A stretch of DNA of 64,000 bases, from assembly GCA_050084515.1 (NCBI GenBank), contig CM114271.1, forward strand, positions 1,612,001 to 1,676,000, given 5' to 3'. The position numbers and the translations under genes were made by a program. Shown in pieces: positions 2,403-54,500 of this stretch. Under the pieces are notes generated by a model. That model was not told the DNA's origin and did not search any database. It saw only the letters and a list, made by a program, of their open reading frames with translations. Positions within the stretch are counted from its first letter, which is position 1, and each line of letters begins with the position of its first letter. Source of the DNA: Blasia pusilla (taxonomy: Eukaryota).

Positions 2403-2942
2403 TGTCACGTCCTTTAGGATAGATCGGTGAGATCTAGTAGAGCGTCTTCGAGAGTAGTGGAGGACAGGCCTAGGAGGTCGAGGATGACCTGCTGAGTCCC
2501 CGGGAAACCTGAAAGAGCAGGTTTCCCCTTCGTTTTGGCTCATTTGGAGCCATATTGAGGAACTTACTATTTTAGGTAAGTACCATTTTTAATATATGAT
2601 CAACTTTCTATTTTTGGTAATTGGCCCTTGACCTCTTACATCAGGTCAAGAGCCAAGGAGGTGACTTGGGAGAATAGGTTACCATGGAGAGAGCTTGGGA
2701 GAAGGGAGGGGTATATATCCAAAGGAGAGAGAGCTTGAGAGCTCATTCTCTCTTTGTTGAACCTCTTGGCATGAGGCGGCGGAGCTATGGTCCCTTGCCT
2801 TGTGAGTGTAATCCAAGCCTCTCATTAGGAGAGTGGGTTTGGTTTGACATGAGAGAGAGTGCACACCTTTGAGAGCTATGGTGTGAGATTGTGTAGAGAG
2901 AGATTGGATCTTACTTTACAAAGAGAGAATGAGAGAGTGACA
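2403..2942 (+). repeat. 5' LTR of the DNMT-carrying retrotransposon (tail and PBS partly deleted)
   Basis: Begins TGTCAC, TATA-like GTATATAT at ~2711, followed by CAGAGC (possible PBS-Met remnant). Similar to the reverse complements of 45100-45270 and 49030-49317. Confidence 0.65.
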
Positions 2943-5000: not shown

Positions 5001-5190
5001 CCTAATATTACTTGTTGGTCATGTGGTGGAGCCCATCATCAACGAGATTGCACTCGTTAGGATCATGGACGTGTGCCTCAACATGGAGGAGGAGATGGTG
5101 CTGCACCAGGAGGTTATCAATGTGACTATTGTCAGAGGTATGGTCATACACGCGCCAAGTGTTTCAGTTTATATCTTGAGTTACGTCCGG
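5001..5190 (+). pseudogene. Retrotransposon gag nucleocapsid region, two zinc knuckles
   Basis: Same frame: CWSCGGAHHQRDC (5013-5051) and CDYCQRYGHTRAKC (5121-5162, CX2CX4HX4C). Confidence 0.8.
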
Positions 5191-6001: not shown

Positions 6002-6484
6002 ATGGCTTCTCCTGGTGTTGTGTTGCTGGATAACCGAGGAGAGGTCTTCCAGTTGGTGAGTCCTGAAGGTAGAGCTTTTAGTCCGCAGCGCGTCTTTTTG
6101 GATTCAGGAGCGCAACCCCTGATGTTGGGGAAAGCGTCATTTAGAGGATTGGGCTTGACGAGAGCCGATGTGGAGCGTTGTCCATTCCGGATATAGACAT
6201 CCTTGGGTGGAGCGAGTACCACACAGTATATCACCCGACAGGAGGTCGTGGTGAGGATTCGCCCGGGATATCTTACAAATGAGTCCGTGGTGAGCGCCAA
6301 GGCAATAGTGACTGATGCAGAGTCCTATGACGTCTTGGTTGGTGGAGTAGTGTTATACCCCATGGGGTTTTCCTTGGATTACTGGGAGTCAGCGTCCTAC
6401 AGACCAAGATGGCAGTTAGGTGATGGGCGCCTTAGCTCATTACCCGTTCGATTCACAAGTGCAGTGATCGAGCAACGGCCATGA
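6002..6484 (+). pseudogene. Retropepsin-like aspartic protease of the retrotransposon
   Basis: VFLDSGAQPLMLG (DSG at 6101-6109) and downstream YDVLVG. In-frame stop at 6194-6196. Confidence 0.8.
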
Positions 6485-6799
6485 GAGATGGTGACCTTAG
6501 CAGCATTTAGCAGTGCCATCACTTGGCCTAGTAATTTGATTGAGGGATATGTCCATGTAGAGGATACTCCCATTCCTGACATTTCTATGGAGAGGAGTGT
6601 TATGGTAGCTACATCATTCCGTGGAGGAGAGGTGCCGTTGTGGGGCTTGATAGAGGAGCTTCGACGATTGGCAGATGAGCACGTGCAGACCGCGTGGAGC
6701 GAGGCGTTTGCACTAGAGCGTGATGGGTCTGAGGAACCCGAGGAAGCAGGGAGTGCTACGATGACGCCCTTGGATACCACATCCACTGTGTGGTGTATC

Positions 6800-7175
6800 C
6801 CGGAGGAGGGTATTCGAGTGTTAGATCTCTTTGGAGGGATTAGCACCGGGTTAGTTGTTGTTTTGCAGGCATGAGTGCGAGTACATCAGTACCTGTATGT
6901 GGAGAGTGATGATGTTGCGAGGCGCGTCTCACTACGACATGTGGCGCACTTACGCCTACGTTTTCCCGACTTATTATCTGCGTCCGCGGTACAGGGATAC
7001 CAAAGTTCCCTACGAAGGGATATTTCGTTGTTGGGGGCGCAAGACTTAGAGCAGGTAGGGACCATTAATTTGGTCATTTCCGGTTGGCAATGTGAGGGCC
7101 AATCGAGTGCTGGACGAGGTAGCGGGTTGGCTGACACTCGGTCCAGATTGTTTTGGGAGATGTTGAGGATCTTAC
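6800..7175 (+). pseudogene. C5 cytosine-specific DNA methyltransferase domain, N-terminal half (motifs I-IV), truncated
   Basis: IRVLDLFGGISTG (motif I), YLYVE (motif II), DI (motif III), INLVISGWQCEGQSSAGRGSGLADTRSRLFWEMLRIL (motif IV, Cys at 7091-7093, P>Q; then the G..D.RS.LF element). Same frame as the protease, one stop at 6872-6874. No ENV motif VI because of the deletion. Confidence 0.85.
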
Positions 7176-8295
7176 TTTACAAAGTTGGATATTTTGGTAC
7201 TTCTTGTCTCGTTGTTTGGATGCCATGAGTTAGCATGGGATCGTGCGTGTTTGTGTGTGTGTTTGGTGACAGCGATATATGTTGTGTAGCGATGTGTATA
7301 CGCACGACATATATGTACAATAGGACAAAATAGTGGGATAGTAAGAAAAAATGGTAATATGTTTGAATTTCGTTCCTTGATTTACATTAGATGGTTAGGG
7401 AATATGAATGTTAGTGGAAAGGGAAAATATTTTTATTGAACGAAAAATTAATTAACATTAACTAATAATTTAGTTAGTGGATTCTATTTTTGGGGGAAGA
7501 ATGGTAGGAAAAGAATAAGTATTGTTGAAACTTTTATGGTAGAATGGAATTATTTAGAGGACTCTGGTATTATTTAAATTTAAATTTAAATTTATAATTA
7601 TTATTCTTTTTTATGTTTGAATATTTCATAAAATAGAAATTATTTTTAAAATTTAAATTAAAAATATCTCTAAATTACTAAAAAATAATTTGTACGGTAC
7701 GCTAACTAGTATTTGTTAATAATAATCGAACAATAAAAAGATTTGCATTATTGAGTATCGGGGAGATCCGGGGTCGGTTTCGTCTCACACTGGTCGGACA
7801 AGACTTTGTATAATAGGGTATCTGAAAATCTGGTCTTACCCTTACCGGCTAGGAAATACCGGTCCCGGTGGAAAACCTCCCGGAGCCTGGAATGGAAACT
7901 CGCATGCATTGGGTCCCGCATACGAGGAAAGCGTGGACTACGTATATAGCTAGCTAATGGACGCTAGACTCGGGAAATCGCATGTATAGGGTCCCGCACT
8001 TGAGGGAAGGGTCGGACTCAGTGTCCCACTGCGAGAAGGACCAGTGCGAGAAGGACAAGTGTACAACTCAGAGTGGGAGACCAGGAGAATTAAGTGGCAT
8101 ACGAATCTTATTCCCGGAAAAGCGGAGGCAGTGAGAGGAAGCTCTCTCTGGTTGCGAGTCGCGCGGGCGGCGAACGGAAGGAAGGACAGAAGGACAGACG
8201 GACGGAACGCGTAGGAGAGGACCGAAGGACCGTCAAGTTTCCGAAGGACGGAAGAACGGGAGTTCCAAAGAGCCGTCCAGTTTTCCATTCGAGTC

Positions 8296-10125: not shown

Positions 10126-13100
10126 ATGGTCAAGCTCTCACCAATCTCTTGTGCAGTGCATACCGTGAGGAAATTTGGATTTTCTAGTGCACGCTTCACT
10201 CCTGGTCATATCCGTAAGAGCATCATGGACACTAATGGAAGCTCTGGTGGTATGGATTTCCTCCAAGAAGAAATGATTTCGTTCATTCATTCATTCATAC
10301 CATGCTGTTCAAACTAGTAGTACTGAAAGAGTTCATCTGGATTGTGATAAGATAGGTCTCATGTTGGTGGTTCAAATCGCATAAAATAATTGAAATCGGT
10401 TTGCAACGAGCAGGTCATCAAGTTCCATACTTGGCCGATGCGTCCCAACTTATTGATGATGTGGAGACCTTCATATTCGACATAGACGGTGAGCTGCTGT
10501 CTTTCTTTTCTCTGTCTGTGAGAGAGTGTCTATTAGAGCCCTATTGGGAAATGTATTCTCAAATGTGTTGCTGGAAATAAGTAGTAGAGACTGTGGTGAA
10601 CTCTATCTACATCGAGAAATATAAAGTAGAGATAATAATCTGAGCAAGATAGAGACGGTATATAATGAGACATATAAAGTGCATACTGAACAATGTGAAT
10701 CAGAGATCGTAACGAAATGTATACCGAACAATATCAAGTAAAGATGGCAATATGCTCAAGTGATGTTCCAGATTCTCTATACTCGTTTAAGAGGATGGGC
10801 TCTACATTTCTCAAATCTTAAAAATTTGACATGAATCTTAACGGTCAGGCGAGGCAGCCAAATTTGAAGCAAGTACTAGGACTGGTCGAAAAGATGGGCT
10901 CTCATTACTAATTTACTATTACTAGTTTGTTTCTTGAATAGTACCAGGTTTTTTGGGTGGTCCAACCTAGACACAAGCTCATGGTCAGCTCTGACCCCCA
11001 AGGTTATTTCTAACGAGTTTTTAGGAGGCATATATTTGCAACCAAGTCTCAGGGCTGCTCTTCTGGTCTGAGGACTTTTAGATGGTGGATTGTTTATGCA
11101 GGAGTGATATGGAGAGGTGGCAAGGTAATAGATGGAGTTCCAGAGACTTTAGACATGTTGCGGTCTATGGTGAGTTCACGAAACATATGTAAGCTTTGTT
11201 GTCTTTGTAATTTAGGCGAGACTTCCCGAGTTGGGCTATGGGCCCGGCCGACTTGATGCTTCGAGCTGTTTTGTATAGACCATCTATCACTATTCTGTTA
11301 CTCTGATGCAGGACATAGGACCTAGGTGCATGCTGAGACAGCAAGCTTGCTGGAGAACTTGAAAGTCATGGTGATCTGTTTCCTTGTGGGGAATGAATAG
11401 GGCAAACGGCTACTCTTTATGACCAATAACTCTACCAAGTCAAGGAAGCAGTTCAAGACGAAGTTTCAGGCATTGGGCCTAAGAATTAGCGAGGTATTAG
11501 TGATCTATGTTCGTGCTTTGCCGATATAGAGTGCACCCAGTCTCCTCTTGGAAACTGTAAGAGTTGATGCCAAACTCAGTGTAGAGGGTCACTTCCACTC
11601 GCATTCCTTGCCACAACATGGCAAGTTTTGGCCCTGATTTTCCTTACGAGTCCTTGAGTGCCTCGTTTCTTCCTTGATGAGCTTTCCGATTTCCCCCTTT
11701 AGTCATGGATGCTCTGGAGTCTCAGAGAAAGTAACAGTTCTTCAGTTCCACATCTTCTCTGAATGAAAGATGGCAGATTTGATCTACCGTGTTTATTTGT
11801 ATAATTTTTTCATATCTGTAATTGAGTACTGCTATTTTAGAGCTCGAATAATATTTTCATTCAAAGCTGACTAGTCTGTGATCTCTTTCTGTATATGTTT
11901 ACTCCATTTTTCTGCATTTTCAAGCATACATTTATGGACTCCATGCCAACCAAGGAGGAAGTCCTTCGTACACCTGCTGAGCTGATGTCTTACATGTTCT
12001 TGGTGTAGGAGGAAGTGTTCTCTTCATCGTTTGCTGCGGCAGGCTACTTGCAGTCAATTGGGTTTCCTCCAAATAAGAAGGTTTACGATGAACCTTGAGC
12101 TTTTCTAGTTTGTTCAGTTTTAATTGCAATGTTTAGAAGCAGTCTTTAAATCCTTGAAAGCTTCAAACTTCAAAGGAAGACCTTACAGCTTAGCAGAGTG
12201 TTTTGATAAAACTGAACATCGGAGATTCGGATTCTTTTTCACGTAGGGTTGGTGGAAACTACCTCTTGGCACTGTTAACGAGACGCTTCTTGATTCAATA
12301 GGTGTACGTTGTAGGAGAAGAAGGAATAGGAGAGGAACTTGCGCAAGTCGGTTATCAGCACCTCGGTGGTCCTGTGATTATCCTCTCTTAATCCTTTCCT
12401 TTTTGACTGCAATTCGAGATCTGCTATCATATGATGGTGCTACAGAAGAGTTACTACAGTCTGTATTTCTAATCTCTAGCTTGTCCACTGAGTCGAAGGT
12501 AGAAATTACATGTAATGTGGGATTGTGGGTGCCCCTGAGCAAAAACCCCTGAAGCTACTATCGCATGAAATTGACAGAAGCGGAGAATTCATGCCTTTCT
12601 TCCTCTTCTTTCAGTTCATCATTCCACTATTTACAGGAGAACGCTCATCTGACTTCAGTCTCCTGTGATTTCAGGAGGACGGTGACAAGAAGCTGGACAT
12701 GAAATCAGGCAAAAACTTGGATCATGATCATGATGTATTGGAGCCTAAACCTCTCTGATTTACCAGGGAACTATGATAATAGGCCATATATGTCATCGTG
12801 GCATCTAAATTCTTTCTATGGATGCATGGAGTTTCTGGTACTCACATGCTTATTTGCTGACTGTTGAAGTAGTTTTGCAGGTGCAGTGTTACCCTTTCCC
12901 TCTCTTTGATACTGTCCTGTGAAAGAAACAAATAGTACTAGACGTTTTTGTAATATTTACAAAATAGGCTCCAATAAATTTCACTTTGATTACAGGTGGG
13001 TGCTGTTGTGGTTGGATTCGACAGCTACATCAACTACTACAAGCTAACGTAAGGACTGGTCGGTGAGGGCATGCATGCCGAACTGTCTATATGGCCATTT

Positions 13101-14451
13101 CTTTCTCGCAGCTCCAGTAAATGTGCGGTCCTCTGGGATATGGGGTACTTCGGTGATACATTGCAAGTTTTTGGGCCTTCCTGATGTCAACAGTTACCGA
13201 GAATAACCTTTGTCATCAAATCGGATCTTGAGAAACTGCTCAAAGCAAATCTGATTCTGGAGGGATGATTGGGCCAAATAAATTAGATGTGAAATCCTTA
13301 TTGTGAAATCCAAATACAATCAAATACAGTCCAGTTGCTAAGTCAGTTTGCTGAACCTAGTTTGTGGAAAGAAATCTTTCGAGGAATTCCGGTTCTGCCT
13401 TCACTGAAGGATAACTGGTTGTTGTGGTTGTTTCAATGTGGCAGATATGCAACACTCTGCATACGAGAAAATCCTGGCTGTCTTTTCATCGCCACAAATC
13501 TTGATAGTGTGTCCCATTTTACAGATACACAAGAGTGGCCAGCTGGAGGAACCATGGTTGGTGCTGTAAGAGCCTCAACAAATGTGCAGCCCATTGTTGT
13601 GGGCAAGCCCTCTACTTTTATGATGACGTACCTTGCAAATAAGTAAGTGAACTCAGAACCATGAGATGTAGATATGCGAAAGGGCTTGTAGAGGTCAGAG
13701 TAGGTTTGTTTTCGAATAGGATGCTAAAATGTACTGTTGTCATGTCGAACTCTTAGCCTCCCAGCAGTTTTCAAGTGGCTTGATTATGATGCCGCAGATT
13801 TCAAATCAGCCAGTCAAAGATGTGCATGGTGGGAGACAGGCTTGACACTGATATCCTATTCGGTCAAAATGGTGGATGCAAGACTTTGCTTGTTCTGTCA
13901 GGTACTGAGGTCTTTACCTTTACATTAGAAAAGAGGAGTGATGAGAAGCTGAGGGAAATCAAACTTATGCATCAATGGAAAGTCAGGATGTCATAAGTCT
14001 TCGATCATATTGAAACTTTGAATTGTCTTTTTGGTCTCTTCACTGTGGAAACCAGTTGCTGCCAGAAGTATTCATACAAGAGAAGCAACAAGGTCGCCAA
14101 TATTAGTAGCATGACTTGTTTGGATTTTTGTTCCAGACCAAATTACTAAATAACCAGGCTTTTGTAAATTTGCTTGGAAGCTGAAGTTCGTATTGAAAAG
14201 CCAGTGGCTACTGTGTGTACCAGAAAGATCTGTGAAAGAAATTCTGTCAAGGATAAGTAGACAGCAGTATCAAAACTCCATAGCAGAATTCTTGCAAAAG
14301 GTTGTGCTCTTTCTTAATCACACTTTGTTTTATGAATGCAGGTGTTACAAACCTGAAGACTCTCCAGAGTCATGAGAATACGATTCATCCTGATTTTTAT
14401 GCAAATCAGATATCGGATCTCATGTCTGCCAGAAAATCTGCTGCAGTATGA
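10126..14451 (+). CDS. PGLP1: Phosphoglycolate phosphatase-like HAD hydrolase (subfamily IIA), paralogue 1; 11 exons, ~342 aa
   Basis: Exons 10126-10249, 10414-10488, 11102-11169, 11401-11493, 12009-12080, 12302-12373, 12675-12734, 12996-13048, 13445-13642, 13798-13901, 14342-14451. All GT-AG, sum 1029 nt in frame. Motifs [39 protein letters not shown]. Exon 1 start is uncertain (ATG 10126 or 10225). Symbol denotes family, not orthology. Confidence 0.92.
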
Positions 14452-30731: not shown

Positions 30732-33700
30732 ATGGCTTTCTTCAAGCTTCCAACGTTCCGAGCACTTTTTCGGACATCGCGAATAACTACGAGCACATTT
30801 GGACGAATTGGGCTACAGGACGTGACAGCGAGGCTAGAGGTCGCAGCCAGTCCGCGTGTGGCTAACTCTGTCATGGTAAAGTGTGGGAACTACCGGTCCA
30901 CTTCCGTTGGTGCTCCCATTCCACTCCCTTTCTCTGCCCAGACATCAGATATTCGTTGCAGACCATCACGTTCGACATTATCAAGTGCAAGAAAGTGGAC
31001 ATCACTAACATCTGCAAGGATGTCTTTTGACGAGAATAGAAGCGCTGCCGGTATAGATCACTGGCCGAAGTCAGTAGTTTCGCTGCTGTCAAGGGTTGTC
31101 TTGTATCTCTAAGTGGAAGTCACTCCGTGCTAGGTCAGGCAATTTGCAAATGGAGGAACTAGTTCTGGAATTGAAGTCCTCCAAACCTCATGTGGCGATG
31201 AACAATCTTTTAGGAGAAATGATTGTCGATGCAAACTTTGAATTCAGCGCGGATGGAATACACAGGTAATGGGCCAGTGCCGTTCCTGAAGGATGCAGCG
31301 CAATTCATCGCAGACGTGGAGACATTCATCTTCGACTGCGATGGTTAGTTGAAATGTCCGTAGAGTTTACTCTCGCACTAATTCCTTGATTCTCTGTTCA
31401 TAATTCAATTTATCATCAGATTGAAGGATCGACACCAGGCTGTATTTTCTGGCAGCGGAAATGTTTTCTAGTGAAATTGTAGGACCAGCGCTGGTCAGGA
31501 TAGTACCGGATGACGGTTTCTTAAATCTCTATTGTTTTGAGGCTGAGGTCAAAGATGTATGATTATTTCCAGGGTCTATTCTCAGTTTGAGCGAATATTT
31601 CTTGTAGAACTAGTACAAACTTATCCAAACGAATGCTCGCCATTTCCATCTCCTCAAACTTAAATGGCCCCTTTATCCTGTTCTGTACCCGTACTCTGTG
31701 GTCGAAATGCCATAGCGACGACTAATTTAGACTACATTGTGTAGGTTCCCGAGCGAGTCCTGAGAAAGTTTCATCAAGGTTAGTATTTTAATGGTCGCAC
31801 CTAACACAGTTTTGTAGTGGGATGTTTATCATCCTGATCACATTCGAGAATAGTAAAGTTATCCCTTGATGAAGGCTGACCATATGAAATATCCACTGTC
31901 TTCTGTAGTCTCGCGTCGATGTCCAAACTACCGCAACCAATCCCCAATTCCTCTTGCTATGTAGGATATTTCAGCTTTAAGCCTGATTGCGATTCTTTCG
32001 AATTTCGTGCACGAGCAATTTTGATGTCACCAACTGCAAATGGGTCTTCACTCCAGAGGAACACGCAGACATCATGATGGTTTGAGTGTTGCCAAGCCTC
32101 TCGGCCAACTTGCTGTCGGCTTTGACAGTTTACACTTGGCCGTGACATCGTTAGCGTATCTTTGTCAATCTTGTAGGTTACCATTCAGGGTCTAGTCGAT
32201 TCTCGGACTGGCAAAGATTCCAGCTAAATACCTGGGGAGCAGACGAAGTTTCGTTTCGTCTACTCCCTGTTGCAGGTCTGTATTTTGCACTGCAACAGGG
32301 AGTAGACGAAACGAAACTTGAAGTCCACAGCAAGAAGTTCAACACGGGCAAATGAGAGCAAGTCGGACAAACGGATAGATGGTGCTCACTGCACGAAAAC
32401 AAAGCTTCGTGTTTTGTGGCCAGACAAAGCTGCTATGTTAATTAACCGTATATTCTGGCATTGTCACTCTGATCTATTTACTGACTGGGTGAAGAGATAT
32501 TCCAAGATGGAACCTGAATACTTTTTTGTCCGTTAGGTCTGAGTTCAGGATATGACCATAAGGCTTTGACCTCTTTGTTACAGGTGTGATTTGGAGTGCC
32601 TATGGGTTGTTCGAGGGTGTTTCCGAGACTATTGATCTACTTCGTTCATTGGTAATTTTCTGGTCTGAGTTTGATGAAGGCTCTATTGCTAGTACATATC
32701 TCTACTCCACGTCTCAAGTAAAGGGACACTGTTCAGTTTGGCTCGAGCTTACATCCCCAGGCTAATGAGCAAAGTACAATACTTCATAAGCGTTTCATGA
32801 CTGCCTGTTGTTACTTGAATATGAAATCAATCATACTTTGTCATGTGGAATCAGGGCAAACGGGTATACTTCCTCACGAATAACTCAACAAAATCTAGGA
32901 AGGAGTACGGCAAGAAGTGCAAGGCTTTGGGATTAAATGTCAGCGAGGTATTTGAGCTGTTGATTCTTAGAAGTAAACGAATCGTTTGAGACTTTAAATT
33001 CTACCTAGTTTTTGCCGATGTCCAAGCAGAGCTGCATCGTCAGCACTTGTGCTCACGGACAAGAAGAGGCGTCTCCTTCTGCCTTGGGTTTTTAATAATT
33101 TTCACGGGTTATTTAGATGTCCAAAGAAAGGTTGTAATGCAATAAGAACTCGTCAACAAAATATTATACATTCACCCTCAAAATGTTTGAAGCCATAAGT
33201 AAAAGCACTCTTTGAACTCATTTGCGTACAAGATCTCCTAGGAGTATTTGCAATTCTTGTGCAAGCCCCATTTCTCATTCAGCCCTCACTATTTGACCAC
33301 AGAAATCCAGAGTATTATGCAGAGAGGTGGTCTGTAATTGTGAGGCATCGAGAAGCAGGGTCGTCGTTGTGTGAAGTCTACGTCTTCTGGTTAAGTATCG
33401 ATGGTATTCTACAGCTAAGAGTGATGAGATAGCTACAACTTCCTGCAGGAGGAAGTCTTTTCTTCAGGATTTGCCGCAGCAAGCTACTTGAAGTCTATTG
33501 ACTTCCCTGGAGATAAGAAGGTAATTACCCAGCACACGAACAAAAGTTAACATGAAATGATTGAAGAAATCGGCTGCGGGTAGGTCTGCACAACTGGCAA
33601 ATGTTGAAGATGACAAGTGAACGCGAACTGCAGGTAGCTAGGTTTTGCAGTACAAGTGGCTCATTTACAACTTTGGGGACGGTAGGTGGGCGTTCGGACT

Positions 33701-36684
33701 TTACTATTGAGCCTTATTATCTCTTTCTGACTAGAACAGCTGCTTTTACAGGTGTACTTAATAGGTGAAACTGGTATTCAAAAGGAATTTGAAGAAGCGG
33801 GGATCCCATACATCGGTGGTTCTGTGCGCATCTTCCCTCCAATCTTGTTCATTTGCAATTGATTTCCAATACTTAAGTGCAGCGCCACCACGATTTGAGG
33901 GTTGTGCAAGCATCTTCTTAGACAGTGATTTGAATGCCCACATTTTTCTCTCGAATACAGTTCTGATATAGACACAAGCTGGGTAGCACCAGGCCAAGCC
34001 ATCTCTGTAGTACCCAGGCAATTTATCATGTGATAACACGAGTGCAACCACCGAAATCTGTATAGTTATGGGAATGTAGTACTGCACATTTGGCTAACCG
34101 TCAAATGGCTGTTCAACTTGCCCTGGACTAATCCTCTGCAGTCCATACTGTCCTGTGATGACAGGACCATGATGACAAGGAATTAAATTGGAATGCAGGC
34201 CAAGTCATTGAGCATGATAACAAAGTAATCGGCCCTCTTCGTTGCTCTAAAGCTCGGTTCTCTCTGTAATGTCATCTTTTGTGCTTGGTATACTAGTAAG
34301 CCTCCGGATATACTGCTAAGTACGATCTTATTATTCAGGATCAAATGTGATAGAAACCTGAGAATATATGGTTACTTTCTCTACCCACGACATGCAAGCA
34401 CTAGCATTCTTTTTTAAAGTTCAGGATTCTGTTCTCTAAATTTTTGCTTCGGCTACTCAAAGGTTGGTGCCGTCGTGGTTGCATTCGACCGACACATAAA
34501 CTACTACAAGATTCAGTGAGTACTTACTATCTGTGCTGGTCACTAACACTTCTTGTTTAATTACCCTCAAATTCTGAGAGTGGTTTTCTGTATCCCGCCA
34601 GTACCGAAACCACAGTCCTTATTCCTTCACTAGTCCAATGCACAATGCTTAACTTCGTCTTCAACTATTTTGAAAGACGGTGTCACCTGACTGCAGTGTC
34701 CCTTTATGTGAGGCAGATATGCCACACTCTGTGTACGCAAAAATCCCGGCTGTCTGTTCATAGCTGCCAACTGCGATGTGGTTATTTGTCCCACTGGTGG
34801 CCAAGGATATGCGGGTGAAGCTTCCATGGTAGGTGCTCTCATGGGATCGACTCAGAAGGAGCCAATTGTTGTTGGGAAGCCTTCAACTTTCATGATGGAC
34901 TACCTAGTAAACAAGTAGGTGTACGACTTACTCATGTCCACTTCTATGAACTTGATACGAAACTAGAAAATGCTAGGAACCTTATTTGAACCTGTTGATT
35001 CACAGTTGTCTGGATGTCTTAGGTTGCTAAGAGATGTCGATTTCCTGGGAAGGTTTGGATTATCTGTGCATGTTGTGAAATATGCACAGATCATAACACC
35101 TTTCCACCATGAAGATTTCGGACCACATTTTTTTTTATCGAAGTGGGTATGAATAGCAGGTTCAAGATCAAGAAGGGACAGATCTGCATGGTGGGAGACA
35201 ACTTAGAAACCGATATTCTCTTCGGCAAGAATGGTGGATGCAAAACTCTTCTTGTGCTTACTGGTAAGTTCCAATTCATATGAACAACGGCCAAATTGGC
35301 AGCACAAGAATTTCACCCAAGTTTTCACGACTAAACTGGAAACGAAAAGTCCTTCAGAGCATTCTGACTTGACTGCGCGAGAGTTTGGATGAGCACAAGA
35401 AAAGAAGCCAAGCGGCAGTGGCGACTCTAGACTATTTCTTGACCGCTGATGAGTGAAGCAGCTTTAACTCTAGTTTCAGAACCTGCGTTCAAATATTGGA
35501 TAATCATGTACGGTCATCCAAAGGCTCAAATCGTCGGCTGAGTGAATAAGCTAACCCACCTTCTCAACTGTAAGGCAAGTTTCATGCACAAGAAATAGAT
35601 TGAACCCTTACGCAAATTTGACCGGCATAAAAGAATCACCTAGTTTATGACCTAGAGGGGCGTGGAACAATTCAGCATGGACCCTATGTCGAATCCTACA
35701 GGTTTGAAATGGGCGTGCTAGGAAAAGGTTTAGGAGACAATCAGGAGAAAGGGTGGACCCCGATTTTGATCCTCTCATGACGGGACTCGTGTCAACGACT
35801 TCACCCGGCATTCTCAACCTTACATGCACTTGTAAGCGAGATGGTAGACGTGAAGGTCGTACACAATAGGATCGAGTAGATTCAATGCCATACAAATGAG
35901 ACCGGAAGTAAATGGATGTCGGTGCGTCCAGATGAGAGTCTCGTCCACTAGATGGGGAGAGACTGTTTGAATTCTGAATAGGGTACAGGGATTTTCTGGC
36001 TTTGATCCTTAAGACGGAATTAGTGCACATGAATGCAGATGAAAGGATACAGGAAAGAAGGGAATGATGCGTGGAGTGTGGTTGCTCACGAAGCCAGTAT
36101 ATGTGCGGAGCTTGCCTGGTTTCAAACAGGACGCTCTCACATAACTGTTGAGCTCGCAGGGTGTATTCATGATCTCTCGGTGACCTCTAACACCGTAAGG
36201 GAGATCGATGAGGATGAGATGGGTCATAAGTAGGCCTACGCGTCAAAACAGCATCTATAGAGAGTTGGCATGGAGGACAAGCGAAGGCCACTACGTTTCA
36301 GTTCCGACTTGGACCGTTGAAACCATTCTAAGTCAGGTGTCTCCCAGGTCTGAACACAGTGGAAAGTTTATCCTAATTTCTGAGTAATAGTGCCCTTGGC
36401 GCACTGCTACTGTTGTTACACGATGTGGGTCGTTACAATTTTTTAAGAGTTGTACTATCAACATCTGGAAGGTCAAAGTGGACAGGAAACTGCACTTCAT
36501 ACCACAAGTCGGTTTCCGAATCTGACGTTTTCGTGTGGACGTTTTTCTACTGCTTCTGACAGGAGTGACTGACTTGGACTCTCTCCAAAGTTCAGAGAAC
36601 AGCATCCATCCCGATTTCTACACGCACCAGCTCTCTGATCTTTTGGCTGTGAGGGAAGTACCAACCGATGGTGTCCGGGTGTAA
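30732..36684 (+). CDS. PGLP1: Phosphoglycolate phosphatase-like HAD hydrolase, paralogue 2; 11 exons, ~412 aa with long N-terminal transit-peptide-like region
   Basis: Exons 30732-31050, 31266-31343, 32584-32651, 32855-32947, 33449-33520, 33752-33823, 34165-34224, 34463-34515, 34717-34914, 35160-35263, 36563-36684. All GT-AG, sum 1239 nt. Exons 3-10 are the same size as in paralogue 1. Motifs [24 protein letters not shown]. Symbol denotes family, not orthology. Confidence 0.92.
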
Positions 36685-39848: not shown

Positions 39849-42800
39849 CCCTCAGCCCACTCTTCGAGAACGGGTACTAGAGGAGTAAAGGAGAGGGAGT
39901 ATGATCAGATCATTCTTCACTATTTCTGCCAAAGTCTCTACTCTCGTTCTAGCCATCCACTTTGCAATGGGGAAGCATAGTTTTTCTGGTTGCAGTCATT
40001 CATGTTGAAGTAGAGAAATAATGTGATCGATCTTGGGGTAGAAAATATATGGAATTAAGGATGCATGTACTTTTCATGGAATGAATATCTAGACCCACCA
40101 TGGTGTACTTACATTCACGAAAAGATTCGATGGCTACATAATGGCGTGATTGAAAGTCAACGAATTGAAGGAATGACAACAATAAGAACTTCAAGTAGTT
40201 CTTGCATTATGTTGGCTACTTTAAACAACCTCTTCTCCACGAAAGTACAAACCAAGACCTTTGCACCCACCATGCCAACCTCTCCCACTAGGAGAGAGAT
40301 ATCCGAGTCAACTTTCCCATGCACCCACATACCAAATACACTACTGCAAGAGGAGAAAGCTCGAAATCGATAGGGGGAGTAGTGTGGGAGTGTCTCCTAG
40401 TCCTTCACACCCCTATGATTTTTCGTTGTCTTAATGGTTGTTGTCTTCTTTGAGTTCATACCTTTTCTTAACAATGGACGATGGAAACCTCCCTTTCAAT
40501 CATGACCTATGTGGTTGACACTTTCTATAAAAATGGGCTCCCCACTCTATGATGTTATCAACCAACTATGAGAGCCCGATCCCATGGAGTAATTCGAACT
40601 ATCAACCTTGGCAGATACGTCATATCAAGCACATCCAATGGTTAATGTATTTCTAAAATGATCGGAGTCTTTGGTTTTTTATCAGTGTCTTGAGTTTTTC
40701 CCGGGGTCTTTGGAATTCCTGCGACCATTATTTTTGGGCGCAAGAAAGCCGCAACGTCCTCAAGCCTTATGAAACCTGCGAGGGCCGGTTGCTATTTGGC
40801 AAGATACAAGTTTCGATCAATAGTGTAGAGTAACTGAACGGGAAGGAGACCGGAGCAATTCCGGAGGTCCCGGCTGAACAGGCCGGTTGTTGCAGCCGGA
40901 TAAAGTTTCTTGGGGTTGCGTGCAACCCCAAGAAACTTGCCGTGGAATCGAGCTCCGAGTGTCGATTTAGTTGAGACTTTATCAAAGCATGTCTTGCAAG
41001 TTCATCTTCTATATTGTTAAAATAGTTTTTAAGAGATGTTTTGAATGGATTTCATGTGTCTTTTCTTAAAATTATTGGAAAAATATCCTTTTTTCATTGA
41101 AAAAAATTTCTATGGTTTTTGCTCACAAATTCTATTCCATTTTTCTACCATTGAACTATTACCTGTCTATTCCTATCACTAAAATATTCCCTCATTTTTT
41201 TCTCACCGGGATTTTTTGTATCTAACTCTTTGTCGGTGTAAAATAAACACAATATTGGGAAGTTCAAAATAAAATTTTAGCTGTTTGTAGTATGTGTGTG
41301 TCATAGCGGTGCCTATGGGCATGGACTTGGATCTGAGGGAGATACCTAATTATATCCCACTTTCAAAATTCTCTTGAGATACATGGGCATACACAAATGC
41401 CCAAGGTATGTGTGTAAGGAGTTGAAAGATGCCACATTGGTGCCAATTTGGTGGGGCGAGAGGAGTAGCCTTACAAGCATCAAAACTACTCTCAATAAGC
41501 ATGTACACCCCTTCCCCCTATTTCCTTCAATCCTTGACATCAACATCCATTTGGCCTATCCATCCCTTCTTCTCCCCATAAACAAGCACCTCGGATTGAG
41601 ATGCCCAAATGTCGAGTGTGTCATATTCAAACACATCATTCCATAGGGATCCCATAAGGGTTGCATGTAATCTTGATTATAAATCTTATAGATTTTATTT
41701 TTTTAAACACTTGTGTGTTGCCCATGCCATGCACATGACTATTGACAACAACCAAAAATAACTACATAAATAAAGGCCTTTCCTCGATCCTTATGTGTCC
41801 CCTCCTTTGTGTCCCCTCCTTTCTTCCCTTCCCCCCCCCTCGCCGTGTGTAGTCTCCCCTTAACTAAACTCACTCCTCTTTTAATTTAAATCCCTCCCCT
41901 TCAAATTATACATGTTAACACCACATAAGTCCTCAAGTGATATATGTCCACATTAGGAGGGCAGTTTCTATAAACCTCTCCTATGTAAATAGTATAGTAT
42001 AGATAAGAATACCATTTACACTTATAAATTAGAGTTATTTTCTTCTTACTTTTAGATCTTTTCCCCTCCATTCCTATTTCTGAGTTTTTTTAAATGAAAT
42101 TTCCCCATCTTATATAATGGATTATACAAGAACGCAATACTTCAACATTTTACAATAATAGGACTCTAAAACATAAAATATTAAAAAATAGGACTCTAGT
42201 AATCAATTACATCCTAGAAACATCACTACCGACTATTGATGCTTAAGGTCTTGTCTTGGTAATCATGTTCTCATTACCACTAGTAAGAATGCTCTTGCAA
42301 TACATATGTGTTGGATTCATAATCTGGTGTATGGTAGACCCGTGTAAGACGGGCTCACACCCGCTCGACTCATGCCCTACCATGCACGCACCCATTCTTG
42401 TGTCCCAAGCCCGCGTGGGCCACTGGATTGCCAAAAAAACCCGGGTGGGGGACCCGTTGGGTATGTCCATGGACATATCCGGACTTGTATGTTTCCGTGC
42501 AAACTTTCTGTCTAGGGGATTTTCAAAAGTCTAATTATCTCGTGGGAAAAGGATTCTTTAGGATTCTTGGATTCTTTATCTTCAATCGTAAGGAATCCAA
42601 AACAAAAACTCTACACATTAAATCTCTAAATTTTTACTCCAACTCACAAGAAAACTGCAGGATTTTCTTTAAATATCTATGTCCGTATTGCGGGTATGGA
42701 AATTTGGGGAGTTGTGGAAATCCCCCTTATTTTCCAACTACCTCTCTTAATTGCCCAGTCTATTATCTCTAATATTCCCTTCTAAGAAACTAAGCATGGT

Positions 42801-44941: not shown

Positions 44942-45500
44942 TGTTGTGTGCATACATGTCATTACACAACATGCATTATTGTCATCATCCAACAAATTCA
45001 TCAACTTGGAAATCATACTCAACCTCGGAAATCAAACTCACGCACAATCCTATACAAAAAATCCACAAAATATGCAATTGCATTCTCACATCACAAAGTT
45101 CTTTTCTATGTCAAATCGAACTCACTCTCCTAATGAGATGTTCACACTATGCAAAACGCAAGAGAGACCATAATTTTGTTGCCTTATAGGAGGAGGTTTA
45201 ACAAAGAGATAATGAGCTCCCAAACTCTTTCTCTCTTTAATGTATAAACCCTTAACCCCCTCCCAAGCCCTCTTCTTGGTGACTTGTGCATATGTGTCAT
45301 ATCTCTAACTCTCTCTAGTAGGATAAAAGGCATTTTCTTAAGATGAAGTCAACTATGTCATAAATAGAGAATTCAAAAGTTCTTCCAAGTAGCCCTTAAT
45401 GGATCTATAACTAGGGAAAACTTTCACACTCAAGTTTCCCACGTTCTCAAAAAATCATCCTCAAATTTTTGGGATCGATACGTGAACTCTCCAAGTACTC
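44942..45500 (-). repeat. LTR related to the DNMT-retrotransposon LTR (probable solo LTR)
   Basis: Reverse complement shares CTCATTAGGAGAGTG and GAGCTCATT.TCTCTTTGTT with 2730-2850. Its terminus TGTTGTGTGCATAC matches the 7296-7309 LTR end. Confidence 0.7.
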
Positions 45501-48700: not shown

Positions 48701-49029
48701 ACTAGAATATGTATGTCCTCCCTATTGTTCCAAATAAAAAAAGTAAAGAAAAAAAATTAAACACCACAACATCTAGTAATACTATATAAAATATTGTGTT
48801 CTATGTGTGAAGAACTCTATGTGTGAAATGCTCTCTCTATACCCTATCCCTTCAACCCGCAAAATACTTGGCTTTCCTCAACCCGCTGAATAAAAAAAAT
48901 ACTAAAAAAAGAAGTTGAATGGAGGAAAATGGAGCAGCACACGTTTTTTAGGCTCCGTTGTCTAAACCTAAGCCGTTTCGATAGTAGTCACAGTTGGAGA
49001 AGGGAGGCTCCATGTGAACTGCCCCTCTG

Positions 49030-51060
49030 TCTCTCTCATATGTATATATATCACATCCTCAACTTTGACCTATGATAATGGATCAAGGGGCATATTTTTT
49101 TCTCCAAGAGAAAGTCAACTCTATTCAAAATAGGAAAGTTACTCAACATTGTAAGTTCCTAAAATTAAAGAGCTCTAGATAAGCCTTAATAAAAGAAGAC
49201 CTACACACAAAATTTTCCTACTTCTCAATATATCATACTTGACCTAATGAGACCAACTTCCAATTTTCCCATATACACCGAGCGGATACTTTCCATTTTC
49301 CTACAAAAGATGTTACATCCCTAGCTACTTGTTATGTCCTTCAAACTCCAAATAGCCATCTATTCGTACCTATAATGATATATATATCTCTATGATACTA
49401 AGAGAGAAAAAGGCCAGGTGTCCATGTGGCCCTGATCGTTAGTCATCTTTGTATCACCTCATGAGTAGCAAGCTAGTCCAGATTTAAGATTACCTCTCTC
49501 ATGTACATTTAGGATATACTCATTATCCCTAAGGAAAAGTACCTGATCCAAGAGGTAGAGTCAAACGCAACATATGCCACCTTGTTGAACATTCATCACA
49601 AGCTAGTATGGTGGCCATACCTTTGGTTGATCCACACAACGTGCACCATAAGCCTACGTATACTATTGCCAAGTTAAGTTCCATTATCCCTTTGGGAGGT
49701 GCCATGGTGCATATATGATCCTTCCAAATCATGCCAGTATATGCCTCTATGAAGAAAATTCTTAATGGCCCTTAGAATGTGCATGCATCCTATTGTAACA
49801 TCCAATGACATTGGATCTATCTATTCTATCCATTGCAAGTAGACATGATCTTCCTGATAAACTTCAAGATCATTGGTCGATATCCTTCTCCATAAATAGT
49901 CATATACCTCAATATATCACGATGTTATGCAATAGCCAAGTTCTCAAATACCTTAAGCATGACCCATCAAAATATATTGGTTTGTTGAAAACATGCCCTA
50001 ACCCATACAAATAGTTTATCAAGGTTTAAGATCTTTGGACCGGTATGACATATGGATATAGATAAATTTTGCTCTTGTCCTTAGAGAAAAAAATTGGTTA
50101 AAAGGATACCAAGGATTCCAATAAGAAGATACTCTAAGACCATTCTATCCCGATTCCTCATGAATATCTCAACTACATATTTCTCACTAGCATGAATCCA
50201 AAATAGATAGATACATGCAATTTAAGCACCATCTCCTTATCACTCTCATCTTTTCATTAAGCTTCATTTTTGTCTCACTAACTCATGCATAGGTTAAAAC
50301 TCAACCAATCAACATCTTAGTTGAGTTATCCACGTCCATGCACCACCTAAAAATCAAACTCATATAACACGAGAAACCCATATGGAAAGCTTAATTGTAA
50401 GCTTGTGGGACTCCATCAACCATTTGAGTGGTTGATGATCAATGATGAGGGTAAAGGGGTTACCAAATAAATAGCATATTTTCTAATGCCCACAATGTGC
50501 TAGGCATTCATGCTCGTACAAGCTATAGTTTGACATGGCATGGCTGTTTGAGTGACGAAAAAAATCCACTACAAACTCTCTCCCCTCATTATCTTGTTGG
50601 ATGAGCACCGGTCAAAACCCCAACATACTCTAATCTTTGTGCAACTAGAATAGATGCCCTCCACTAGATCTCCACAAGATGGATGCCCACATTAACCTAT
50701 CCTTAAGTTGCTAAAAATCTCTAACTTAATCCAAATTCGTTAACTTAGTCACCAAGTTTACAATTCTACTTGAATCCTTTGACGTATCTTTGATATAAGT
50801 TTTCCAATCATAAAAATACACAACAAGCTTAGCTCACATATGGAGGGCATGTGCATGAAATATCCTCCATATTTTTTTGCTGAACTCCTGGGCCAATGGA
50901 ATATATCGTGTGACCTAAATACTCAATTTGATCTGAGAAGAACTTGCATTTTCTTGGATGTCACTTCAAATCATATTCATGCAATCAATGAAACACCTTG
51001 ACAAGATGTCACTCGTGCTATTCCAATTTCACATTGAAGACTATGATGTCATTGATATAA
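49030..51060 (-). mobile_element. Decayed Ty3/gypsy 3' part: integrase remnants, PHD finger and 3' LTR
   Basis: ORF 49529-49732 CTLCGSTKGMATILACDECSTRWHM is a degenerate C4HC3 PHD. Integrase-like residue at 50450-51000. LTR starts TGTAACATC at 49317 (minus strand) and resembles 2403-2670. Confidence 0.7.
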
Positions 51061-51079
51061 CATCTAAAAAACTCCAAAC

Positions 51080-51518
51080 CATGATTGCACAGAAATAAAC
51101 ATGTCCACGAAAATGCCCAACGGATCCCCAACCCAAGTTTTTTCAATACCTCGGCCAATGGCACGCGCAGGCTTGGGAGGCGGGAACAGATGCGGACTCA
51201 GATTAAGAGAGGCGGGCAGGAATCGTCCTGTACATAGCTTGCACTAGCCCGTAAAGGATGGATTGCGTGGTTGAGCTCGCCCTCAGTGGGCTCGTAGCCC
51301 TTCCTCCTACATGGGCCTATTGCAGGCCAATGCGGGCTTAGGGCAAGCTGGTATGGGCTACAAAACGGGAGACGGGTGCTTAGATTGGGTGCGGGCTAGC
51401 CGAGCCTAGGTATACATTGTGGGTGGGGCGGGCGGGCTTGGGTGCGGTCCATGGGTGCCCTCGCCCGTATGGACATGGACTTGTCCATGAACACGTACTT
51501 TTTCCGTGCACGAACTTG
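51080..51518. mobile_element. hAT-type MITE
   Basis: Perfect 8-bp TSD CTCCAAAC (51072-51079, 51519-51526). Imperfect TIRs CATGATTGCACAGAAA / TTTCCGTGCA..AACTTG. A related end occurs at 42400-42505. Confidence 0.8.
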
Positions 51519-54500
51519 CTCCAAACCCACCAAGATCATATCCATGACCTTATGGAAGGCTTTTAGGATGTTGTTCAACCCAAATGATAATAATCAAAAT
51601 CTTCTAGCTACCATACACTTCTTTCTTGGTGGGAATGATTGTGATAGATGCACACTCCTCTTACAATATCTCCACAAGTCATACCTCTACCAAGTTTTGG
51701 CTCCTACTTTGAATCAAAGCCTCCATATCACTTACCTATAAATTTGTCAAGAGATTGATGTGTCACTAGCCAAACCGATGTGAATCTTTAGAACCCTCAA
51801 TGTATTCAAGTCTTGCATATTCAATATAAAGTAGTTTTTATATCTCCTAAAGAACGTTCTGATGTATCTAGTGTTACTCTCATCTTGTAAACTAGCTTCG
51901 GCCCAATCTTTGCTCCCAAGTCTCCATTGTGACTGATAAGACTAGACAACAAGAGATCTATTGCTATTTTTCAACCTCTTGAATGCCATTACTAGTGCTA
52001 GTTTGCTCTCATGTAGTAATAACATCAACACTAGTCATGATATCTAACTTTGAAATTCCTAACTATGAAATCTTTATAAACTACTTTACGCTTGTACACA
52101 AGAAAAATGGCACAACTAGTATTAAACCCTACTCAAGAAGGCCTATTTATAGTCATATATTGCTAAATAAGGACGTATAAAATACAATCCCAAGTCCTTG
52201 GGTAGTTTACAATAAGAAATATCACTAGAGTTGGTGATTGCGTAACCACATTCATGAATGCCTCCCCAAAGTGCCAAAGTGATTGACTAGATAACGAGTA
52301 AACCAGTGCCTATCTACGAAGAGAACCTTCACGTGGTATGGATTAAGAAAAGGGAAATTGGATACGACTCGCACTCCATCCCTATCTAAGCACAAATCAT
52401 CCTAGCTTGAGCTCGCAAGAGTTTGGATGTTTTGCTTGGCGCTCGTTTGGTAATGAGGGTTGCGACAATCACTCATCTTAAGAGGTTGATGCCCTCATCA
52501 ATGCAAACCTTTTGATGTCAATTCATTTTGGGGAAGCCAACCCCTTGACATCGAATTGCATTCTGGTAGCTAACTCGCAATTTCTCTTTTGGCTTAAGTC
52601 TTAGGTTGTCGCCTGCAACACTTAGCATCGTTTAGCATCTCCTCTTGAAGAAGCCTAGACCGATTCTCGACCGATCTAACCTATCAAATAAGCTAACTAA
52701 GGTTGCTATCTAAGACTTCTCTTGCTCACAACTCATAAACATCTCACATGTTTACATGTTATACAATTTGTACTACTCTTGGATCGCTCTCGTATTCGAC
52801 TTAGGCGCGTCACTAAGTTCACTCATGTACTCATGAGTAAGATCACCCGAAGCCCCAAGATAGAGTGATCTGCCCTGCCGACGCTAGGGCGAGCCCAAGT
52901 GTTAGTTATCCAATAGTGGTCCTATTCTAGGTACTTATCCGAATACAAGCTCTTGCCTCAAATACTCCTTGTCTATCCTCTTTATGTACATCCTAAGCAT
53001 CTGAGGAACCACTCATTGCCATGCACTACCTAAGACAAATTGCAAATAACACAAACATCGAATCTCCAAATTCATGCATTCCTTTATCACAACACTAGCC
53101 TGTTCTGGTTACAATGGCCTTTGGCCCAAGCTTCCTATGGCACAAGTCATGTTCCTAGCTACTCTGTGTACTAACGCATGTGCTTCCCTTGCAACCGTTT
53201 GAAGTCTTGCAACACCTCTTGCGCGTGTTCAACGTCTTCCTCCACAATCCAAGTCACATCTTTCACATGGTAGCCCTTTCAATTGACTAAGTACTCATAC
53301 TTGTTGGCACTACACCTCGAACACAAGATGGTCTCCACATTGAACTCTGGTTCTTCACTTGCGATTATCGGTTGCGGTCTCAACGCTTGTCTTCACTCGG
53401 GACGCTCAATATCCTGAAGATACTTCTTCAACAATGGCATATGGAAAGTGGGATGTATCTTGAACTCTTATGGAAGCTCCAATGTATACACGTCCTTAAA
53501 CAGGTTTGCCTTTATCACATACGGTCCAACATACTTGGCAGATAGCTCCGCGGACAACTCCTTCGAAAGAGTGAGATTCTTCACACTCAACCACACTTGT
53601 TCCCCAACTTGGAATCTCACTTGGCGCCTGCTCTTGTTAGCATGCTTCACGTACCTCAATTGAGCCTTTTCAAGGTTTCTACTTGCTCGCTCCTCCCGAT
53701 CTCACATTTCCGCTAACAAACCTTCTGCCGTCGCTTGTTGGGTGTGTGTTGATGTAGTACCCTTTGAAAGGGACAGGTCAAGAGGCCCTTCTGGCTCACA
53801 TCCAAAAGCGAGGAGAAATGGAGATTCTCCAGTTGCAGAATGCTTGGTGGAGTTGTAGCAGAACTCCGCCATACCCAGCCACTTTGCCCAAGTACTAGTT
53901 CCTTAAGTACTAGTTCACGAGGGAGTTTACCTTTTCTATTTTGCCCATCCGTCTACGGATGGAAGGCTGTGTTGAAACTCAGCTTGGTCTTGAACCTCCT
54001 GAACAAGTATTTCCAAAAGGCATTGGTAAACTTTGGATCCTGATCTGACACAATACTCCTTGGCAACCCGTGTGCACGCCACCAACTATCCAGGAAGAGT
54101 CGAGAAGTAGTATAGGCCATCGTTGAATCCACCATCAACATGAATCTCCCCAACTTATTGAACCGATCAACTATCACAAGTATAGCATTGTATCCCTCAT
54201 ACTGTGGAAGACTCGTTATGAAGTCCATACTCACACTCTGCAAGGTCCGTCCGGAATCGGAAAAGGGTGCAACAAGCCTTGTTTCTTTGCATAAGAAACT
54301 CTGTTTGCTTGACAAGTCACATAGGTCTTCACATATTGAGCAACATCCTCTTTCATGTTGGGCCAAAAGAACCTCTTAGCTAGAACAGCCAGCGTAGATT
54401 TCTCCCCTTTATGTCGTGCCAAGAGTCTGTCATGACATTCCACTAACACCTTGGTTTGCACTCTGCCTTTGCCCACATAGATCTTGCTATGCTTGAACCT

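Follow-up and report, generated by a model that had tools for sequence, protein, structure and literature searches.

Evidence for a high-copy Gypsy lineage in Blasia pusilla with a DNMT3-type methyltransferase, a PHD finger and split repeats that probably reflect joined-end integration

The window analyzed here is a stretch of 64,000 nucleotides of Blasia pusilla (contig CM114271.1, positions 1,612,001 to 1,676,000). Its minus strand carries a decayed Gypsy remnant at 49030-51980, and its plus strand carries a DNA methyltransferase (DNMT) element at 2403. A preliminary description, made from the sequence alone, had noted a PHD-like cysteine pattern behind the integrase remnants, where chromoviruses A and B have a chromodomain, and an adjacent LTR resembling that of the DNMT element. 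It had proposed that the 3' half missing from the DNMT element might be an integrase-PHD (IN-PHD) part. Are a DNA methylase and a histone reader indeed combined in one lineage, and how are the two insertions related? The features of both are listed in Table 1. Also present in the window are a Copia-type reverse transcriptase (RT) and RNase H (RH) remnant at 1-1740 (+), recognized by eye, and two copies of a HAD-hydrolase host gene (11395-13904 and 32848-35266), the first with Pfam Hydrolase_6 and Hydrolase_like matches; their matching pieces are 68-84% identical.

Table 1. Features of the remnant, of the younger copy and of a further repeat fragment (window coordinates; PPT, polypurine tract; PBS, primer-binding site).
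Feature	Position	Strand	Evidence or remark
Remnant: A part of split repeat, decayed, TG start	49030..49317	-	alignment; similarity lost past TATA region
Remnant: 3' untranslated region and shortened PPT	49318..49504	-	abuts A directly, B1 missing
Remnant: PHD finger, decayed, integrase C-terminus	49505..49645	-	PF00628 and family PHD match
Remnant: integrase C-terminal part	49646..50080	-	zinc finger and core deleted
Remnant: RT 3' part and RNase H	50198..51081	-	Pfam matches for both
Unrelated insertion, ~520 bp, splitting remnant RT	51082..51602	.	window comparison
Remnant: DNMT-RT linker and RT start	51603..51980	-	family read-through stop; TAG-CAA kept at 51966-51961
Younger copy: repeat A1, subfamily D1; TATA ~2712	2403..2917	+	comparison with D1 copies
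Younger copy: predicted RNA 5' end and self-primer (11-mer 2747-2757), complementary to PBS	2742..2757	+	sequence pairing
Younger copy: PBS for self-priming, immediately after A1	2918..2933	+	sequence pairing
Younger copy: Gag zinc knuckles	5013..5165	+	Cys/His pattern; second with weak Pfam match
Younger copy: aspartic protease region	6053..6439	+	DSG motif
Younger copy: DNMT3-type methyltransferase, N-terminal part, deletion-cut	6800..7166	+	profile/structure matches
Younger copy: deletion joint to final bases of A2 (short common sequence), then 6 retained PBS-copy bases at A2/B2	7167..7184	+	
Younger copy: repeat B2, CA end	7185..7309	+	comparison with D1 copies
Separate third fragment of repeat A, decayed	45103..45283	-	72% to D1 repeat

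The PHD-like pattern is real. The segment matches PF00628 with E 0.0015 and 19 bits, below the Pfam cut-off of 24, and is 55% identical to the PHD finger of the family described below (E 5e-9). Six of its eight zinc ligands remain, three stops interrupt it, and a scan of 900-residue frames did not detect it. Profiles also recovered RT and RNase H in the remnant. The search for rve, proposed along with PF00628, gave no match because a deletion of about 830 bp removed the zinc finger and the catalytic core of the integrase. The chromodomain of chromovirus A, to which the position of the PHD finger had been compared, was confirmed as well (PF00385, E 4e-13). The insertion that splits the RT is GC-rich, has a kin piece at window 42403-42476 (73% over 81 bp), and yielded no terminal inverted repeat when one was sought.

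The reported resemblance of the two LTRs also held up, but what had been called an LTR is just one part, A, of a split repeat. The alignment of 49000-49320 (-) with 2400-2760 scored 305, against a mean of 117 (sd 19, maximum 198) for 1000 dinucleotide shuffles. Only one of 388 window segments scored higher, the one at 45121 (-) with 355, which is itself a piece of the same repeat. Identity between 49030-49317 (-) and 2403-2700 is weak, about 58% by count across the first 300 columns, and neither window self-BLAST nor a genome DNA search detected the pair. When the 3' half of A and the B part were searched behind the A of the remnant, the scores stayed inside the shuffle range.

Displacement of a 3' half from the element at 2403 was considered as the origin of the remnant and rejected. 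The element at 2403 ends in B2 at 7309 and has its own flanks, TATG (2399-2402) and TATA (7310-7313), which match at three of four positions; it carries an internal deletion from the middle of the DNMT through the end of A2. Age argues against a single element too, with the element at 2403 being 88-93% like the copies of subfamily D1 and the remnant 65-70%. The two are thus separate insertions of different age. In the comparison of the remnant with D1, changes from C/G to T/A are about four times as frequent as the reverse and peak at CG (0.40-0.46) and CHG (0.35-0.40), indicating long decay under methylation.

Copies elsewhere in the genome supply the part that the element at 2403 has lost. 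By Pfam in fuller copies, this part is RT-RH-IN-PHD, of which the anticipated IN-PHD is the end, and the complete layout reads A1-PBS-Gag-PR-DNMT3-(UAG-CAA-CCA)-RT-RH-IN-PHD-PPT-B1-A2-B2 (PR, protease). The open reading frame at 6485-6871, which runs into the DNMT, was used as a query against the 390-Mb genome. It had 9958 first-look candidates, a figure that is not a copy number; the 150 scored candidates, the query itself excluded, were 81-88% identical. A PHD finger was found downstream in 20 of 20 copies chosen through this DNMT-adjacent frame. Pfam placed DNA_methylase, RT, RNase H and PHD in this order in all three copies scanned, and rve in two of them. With a 60% filter on the domains, the PHD finger was present at 26 of 26 loci and the DNMT at 22. 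Writer and reader therefore almost certainly occur within one lineage, as had been suggested.

The search was also run from the other side. Among 14 fetched close DNA relatives of the remnant IN-PHD, nine have the DNMT upstream and four are truncated; for one (L101), the sequence came from the wrong side of the match and is uninformative on the DNMT. A protease joined to RT without a DNMT occurred in none of the 14. We conclude that the remnant is very probably an old member of the high-copy DNMT-PHD lineage. In the RNase H tree, it clusters with subfamilies D1 and D2 (SH 97), on a long branch. Alternatively, it could come from a sister lineage that has ordinary LTRs and no DNMT, and share only ancestry with the DNMT family. 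Such a lineage would be consistent with the polypurine tract of the remnant, which continues straight into the TG of A, with its low identity to D1 and about equal distance from D2, and with the search for its own DNMT, which was negative in the window and in four stretches up to 36 kb past it and returned only an unrelated younger fragment (L089). We consider this quite improbable, since the remnant retains the TAG-CAA of the DNMT-RT linker and the 14 relatives contain no direct PR-RT join. In addition, among other old copies whose A resembles that of the remnant, L014 and L011/L152 contain B or a spacer of its size, and L153 has DNMT remains along with an inversion, which makes a private deletion the likelier cause of the missing B. 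As a member of the DNMT-PHD lineage, the remnant has lost its own DNMT behind the chromovirus insertion, whose repeat starts near 52035, beyond the linker and RT start.

By its enzymes, with an HHCC and DDE integrase and the order PR-RT-RH-IN, the family belongs to Ty3/Gypsy, and the nearest solved structure to the RT of one relative is that of Ty3. The Pfam scan found no chromodomain at the integrase C-terminus, where the PHD finger is located, and no match to DAM or a chromodomain anywhere in the three copies. A second subfamily, D2 (L106, L111, L115, L121, L126-L130, L133, L150, L151), shares the domain order, layout, PPT, junction palindrome and read-through stop with D1. Its A and B sequences differ, and its DNMT is 66-67% identical to that of D1. 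All copies with listed frames are broken by stops or frameshifts. Because dN/dS inside D1 (0.34-0.44) is blurred by decay after insertion, we relied on D1 versus D2, with two D2 copies only, for which dN/dS was 0.15 for the DNMT, 0.06 for PHD, 0.17 for RT-RH, 0.09 for IN and 0.13 for PR. These ratios indicate purifying selection on both DNMT and PHD in the two subfamilies.

The family is transcribed. Three RNA runs were chosen by species label. At 85% likeness, one D1 copy was matched by 6225 of 10.1 million, 6605 of 12.0 million and 6638 of 11.1 million records. The reads derive from many copies and do not imply a full-length transcript; they are mostly sense-oriented, cover 30 of 30 bins in the three runs, and span the B1/A2 junction. 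A search of indexed runs recorded as RNA did not find the query sequence.

The DNMT lies between protease and RT and has DNMT3-type catalytic motifs. Among 22 copies, 20 have an intact motif I, 19 the PC dipeptide and 17 the ENV motif. The best matches among solved structures are DNMT3A/B; the DNMT3-like domain has no ADD. Several copies encode Gag, protease and DNMT in a single frame. Of 28 aligned copies, 27 have an in-frame TAG-CAA-CCA after the DNMT, and RT follows it in the same frame; this sequence conforms to the read-through motif UAG-CAR-YYA described in PMC3159437. Because this conserved stop lies between them, DNMT and IN-PHD are probably made as different proteins and in different amounts. 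Encoded ahead of a leaky stop, the DNMT would be made at the Gag level and be abundant in the particle. Its most likely and simplest job would be the methylation of the element's own cDNA, as proposed for retrotransposon DNMTs in PMC5890265.

The PHD finger would be present in the read-through product only, carried on the integrase. Its nearest solved structures are the fingers of CHD4, PHF12, KAT6A and KDM5B PHD1. Readers of H3K4me3 possess a cage tryptophan, whereas readers of H3K4me0 have an aspartate after Cys3 and a C-terminal loop for the H3 N-terminus, and several of them bind K4 via an acidic residue before the first cysteine. In the family PHD, the cage tryptophan is absent and the aspartate after Cys3 is present; the acidic K4-contact position before the first cysteine is occupied by arginine. 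Most likely, the finger would bind the unmethylated H3 N-terminus and steer insertion away from H3K4me3 promoters, as a counterpart of the chromodomain in chromoviruses. It might instead act as an ADD-like guide by which the DNMT, as part of a read-through polyprotein or of the integration complex, reaches H3K4-unmethylated chromatin at the new site. Speaking for such a guide, besides the missing ADD, are 63 of the best 120 relatives (see below), which combine a DNMT match with PF00628 in the same protein, and P0174, which reads PR-DNMT-RT-RH-IN-PHD in a single ORF. The conserved stop between DNMT and RT argues against it, as does protease cleavage, which is the rule for polyproteins of such elements. 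Moreover, the DNMT precedes RT in one group and follows RNase H in another, while the PHD finger always follows the integrase. We regard the guide as improbable. Since the finger resembles those of CHD4, PHF12, KAT6A and KDM5B PHD1 and lacks the cage tryptophan, direction of integration to unmethylated H3 tails seems likelier.

The terminal repeats are unusual. Instead of two whole equal LTRs, the copies read A1 (515 bp)-internal-B1 (~128 bp)-2 nt-A2-B2. The inner B/A junction has 1455 exact occurrences in the genome and two in the control. In 54 of 54 examined junctions, the spacer between B and A measures 2 nt, mostly GC, AC, GT or AT, variants that are expected because the palindrome CA-GC-TG decays at CHG. 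The elements end in TG...CA, and flanking 4-bp duplications are exact in six of eight end pairs and match at three of four bp in the other two; the end pair of L080, whose A piece is a 62-bp internal fragment, was set aside. The best reading of these sequences is that the TG/CA ends with their 4-bp duplications come from the internal B/A palindrome. As an observation on repeat sharing, L110, L124 and L051 show PPT-B/A-PBS, with two internal regions having one whole B-A repeat in common.

An A...B-A-B arrangement is known from elements of the DIRS order (PMC5890265), and the split repeats could in principle be due to replication of the PAT/Ngaro type with the help of a tyrosine recombinase, in cis or in trans. 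We give this reading hardly any credence. No recombinase was matched in the sense frames of three copies or the antisense frames of one, and the integrase is strongly constrained (see the ratio above). The TG...CA ends and above all the 4-bp duplications largely refute it.

Priming also appears to depart from the tRNA type, as no tRNA-type primer site with a TGG start was found behind A1. Rather, the sequence there is complementary to bases that lie some 30-35 nt downstream of the TATA box. Of 12 copies with a PBS match, nine show primer-PBS pairing over 14-20 nt, with the partners 160-164 nt apart; the rest are mutated or rearranged. The PBS predicted for D2 from its different post-TATA sequence had 42 matches in the genome and none in the control. 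The PPT before B1 is identical in D1 and D2. The Tf1 element uses its first 11 bases as primer (PMC7175516). In the same manner, the RNA of the family would begin some 35 nt downstream of the A1 TATA box and prime the minus strand with its first 11 nt; plus-strand priming would occur from the PPT, where B1 starts. The reads of the three runs, from libraries that do not map caps, did not reveal an RNA start where one was predicted.

With a self-priming site and a PPT as borders, the linear cDNA would therefore be B-A-internal-B-A, lacking TG/CA ends. Its two ends should meet in the A2/B2 junction, and primer remnants are indeed seen there. Among the 100 listed of 334 such junctions in D1, 58 are precise, 35 contain one PBS base, three contain PPT bases (1-5; a single PPT base may be a point change), one contains an 11-nt primer copy, and three show other small changes. 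L100 keeps 11 nt and the window copy at 2403 keeps six. In D2, 83 of the 100 listed of 487 have the precise length, and the remainder have extra PBS, PPT or T bases or have lost 1-3 nt; the search patterns for both subfamilies miss large deletions. On a 45-copy tree, from which ten of 55 units with PPT-side or odd junctions had been dropped beforehand, the precise and plus-one junction classes were scattered (13 changes versus 12.1 in shuffles, P 0.89). A control SNP was clustered on the same tree (two changes versus 5.7; 0 of 1000 shuffles). The junction classes scatter while the SNP is inherited, suggesting that the A2/B2 junction is remade at each insertion. From its sequence, this junction appears to be two cDNA ends joined, and because it is made anew each time, the integrated form can be read as joined-end cDNA opened at the left B/A palindrome.

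In the proposed route, both cDNA ends would be joined in a 2-LTR circle or a head-to-tail dimer, creating the A2/B2 junction. The integrase would then cut the palindrome CA-GC-TG of the left B/A pair with a 2-nt stagger, yielding ordinary processed CA ends, and insertion of both would give A-internal-B-A-B. That joined ends are integrated, whatever the order of events, is in our view likely, with good confidence. Joining before cutting, as in the full mechanism, is the order we favor somewhat. A symmetric 2-LTR circle has two equal B/A junctions, and the mirror form A-B-A-internal-B is expected from it half the time. A pattern for the mirror form had five matches versus 479 for PPT-B/A, the two patterns being unequal in strictness. 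On inspection, two of the five (L137, L139) were chance motifs in flanks and three (L135, L136, L138) were B-A-B-A arrays; none is a clear mirror. The mirror form may be missing because the left junction becomes double-stranded first, or because cutting precedes joining.

In the latter case, the integrase would cut the left B/A of linear cDNA and insert the new ends, and the break between A2 and B2 would be repaired later, in the chromosome; in one variant, the RT jumps from end to end. Neither course requires a free circle. This order predicts an identical sequence and identical primer remnants. Nearness to a free DNA end could account for the use of the left junction only, and A-internal-B copies with exact duplications (L093, L095, L151) fit a double cut of linear DNA. 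Against this order, the junctions are mostly precise with few deletions (58 plus 35 of 100 in D1, 83 of 100 in D2), though the patterns miss large ones, and B-A-B-A arrays, such as L092, which continues into a PBS, fit head-to-tail dimers that predate insertion. Cutting first is thus rather unlikely, and joining first remains our preferred order.

Relatives occur in other green plants. In the best 120 longer of 293 IN-PHD relatives, PF00628 was detected in 117 and a DNMT match in 65; named hosts are Coleochaete, Klebsormidium, Pleodorina, Tetrabaena, Volvox and Chlamydomonas eustigma. At E 1e-5, again in the best 120 of 293, the DNMT was placed after RNase H in 41, before RT in four, and before integrase in 17 RT-less ORFs. 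In volvocine relatives, it is mostly placed after RNase H. The label "noD" in the RT tree does not signify absence of a DNMT, as most such ORFs start shortly before RT. In this tree, the Klebsormidium nitens element is closer to the chlorophyte-type group; in the DNMT tree (50 rows, no host DNMT3 outgroup), it groups with the Blasia family (SH 97). Relatives of the DNMT itself occur in Calypogeia (69%), Marchantia (~60%) and Sphagnum (53%). Annotated proteins of these three genera (P0197, P0202, P0221, P0250) match the element DNMT at 53-69%; the Marchantia protein P0202 reads DNMT-RT-RH, and P0250 combines a DNMT piece with a PHD finger. The chlorophyte-type relatives P0024-P0122 have the DNMT between RNase H and integrase and a long tail after the PHD finger. 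P0104 of Chlamydomonas eustigma has a chromodomain in addition, and the tail of P0099 shows a weak adenine-methylase match (E 0.003).

Tentatively, and as a picture somewhat more likely to need revision than to stand in full, these observations may describe an old Gypsy lineage of green plants, from volvocine algae to liverworts and Sphagnum. In it, joined-end cDNA would be the obligatory substrate of a DDE integrase, a DNMT3 made at the Gag level would methylate the new copy, and the PHD finger on the integrase would pick H3K4-unmethylated chromatin. A DNMT3 retrotransposon described from one alga is now found at high copy in the Blasia genome and in liverwort and moss proteins, beside a histone reader. 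Some bryophyte "DNMT3" gene models may therefore be element-borne, and an element-made methylase may shape host methylomes. LTR finders requiring two equal LTRs would be expected to mis-delimit such copies. Circles with two LTRs are widely held to be dead ends, and their role as precursors, long disputed, has been argued from experiments with foamy virus and HIV. Here, a large genomic insertion record keeps the joined-end junction with primer remnants, making the precursor question testable by sequence.

Ordinary paired LTRs distinguish Tf1/Sushi and Tcn1 elements from the Blasia family. Tf1-type elements resemble it in that the RNA 5' end, predicted here, is complementary to the PBS (PMC7175516). 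Plant Tcn1 has a chromodomain, absent from the Blasia family, and the available text of the respective paper mentions neither a PHD finger nor a methyltransferase (PMC6317226). PHD fingers in retrotransposons are already known (PMC9940879, PMC6673714, bioRxiv 2021.11.30.470311). In Chlamydomonas reinhardtii, they occur in REM1, a PHD-type Gypsy element cited in PMC9940879, and in Gypsy-7a_cRei, whose insertions are enriched between genes (PMC9940879). The left LTR of Gypsy-7a is without the last 8 bp of the right LTR, a difference that could be a minimal split repeat. Unlike the Blasia family, Gypsy-7a has no DNMT listed in PMC9940879, a comparison made by description only. The EpiLTRs of Cymbomonas and Euglena carry a chromodomain, DAM and a DNMT4-related DNMT (bioRxiv 10.64898/2026.05.21.726589). 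Like the Blasia family, they unite a DNA methyltransferase and a chromatin reader in one LTR element, and a writer plus reader as such has therefore already been published. The Blasia family differs by its PHD finger and DNMT3-type domain and by having no DAM or chromodomain match.

The closest described system is KnitGypsy-Dnmt3 of Klebsormidium nitens, a Gypsy element with a DNMT3 domain and "repeats the same as a DIRS retrotransposon" (PMC5890265). It shares with the Blasia family the DNMT3-type domain in the Gypsy polyprotein region and the DIRS-like split repeats. The K. nitens protein KFL_009030040 reads PR-DNMT-RT-RH-IN, and its DNMT falls in the same clade as that of the Blasia family. 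The authors treat the capture as an event of the K. nitens lineage involving few copies, and we found no mechanism for the repeats in their text (PMC5890265). A search of the main text and of three supplement files did not find the word "PHD"; Fig. 4c may show such a finger. Unlike KnitGypsy-Dnmt3, the Blasia family has at least 1455 junction-bearing copies, a PHD finger and a read-through stop, and its relatives extend to Calypogeia, Marchantia and Sphagnum. DNMT3 in streptophyte elements is mentioned in PMC12344493, where the text gives no detail. In the open-access literature, with subscription papers and theses outside its scope, we found no DNMT3 and PHD Gypsy element, no land-plant copies and no joined-end integration of this kind.

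For the integration step, the nearest parallels are the integrases of foamy virus and HIV-1, which can cut palindromic junctions of 2-LTR circles (PMC1180852, PMC4372172). The likeness would be that a DDE integrase cuts at a palindromic CA-N-TG junction located internally. In the viruses, the cut restores normal linear ends and is a side route. In the Blasia family, the att site lies inside the LTR, and every main-form copy would consequently record the joining step.
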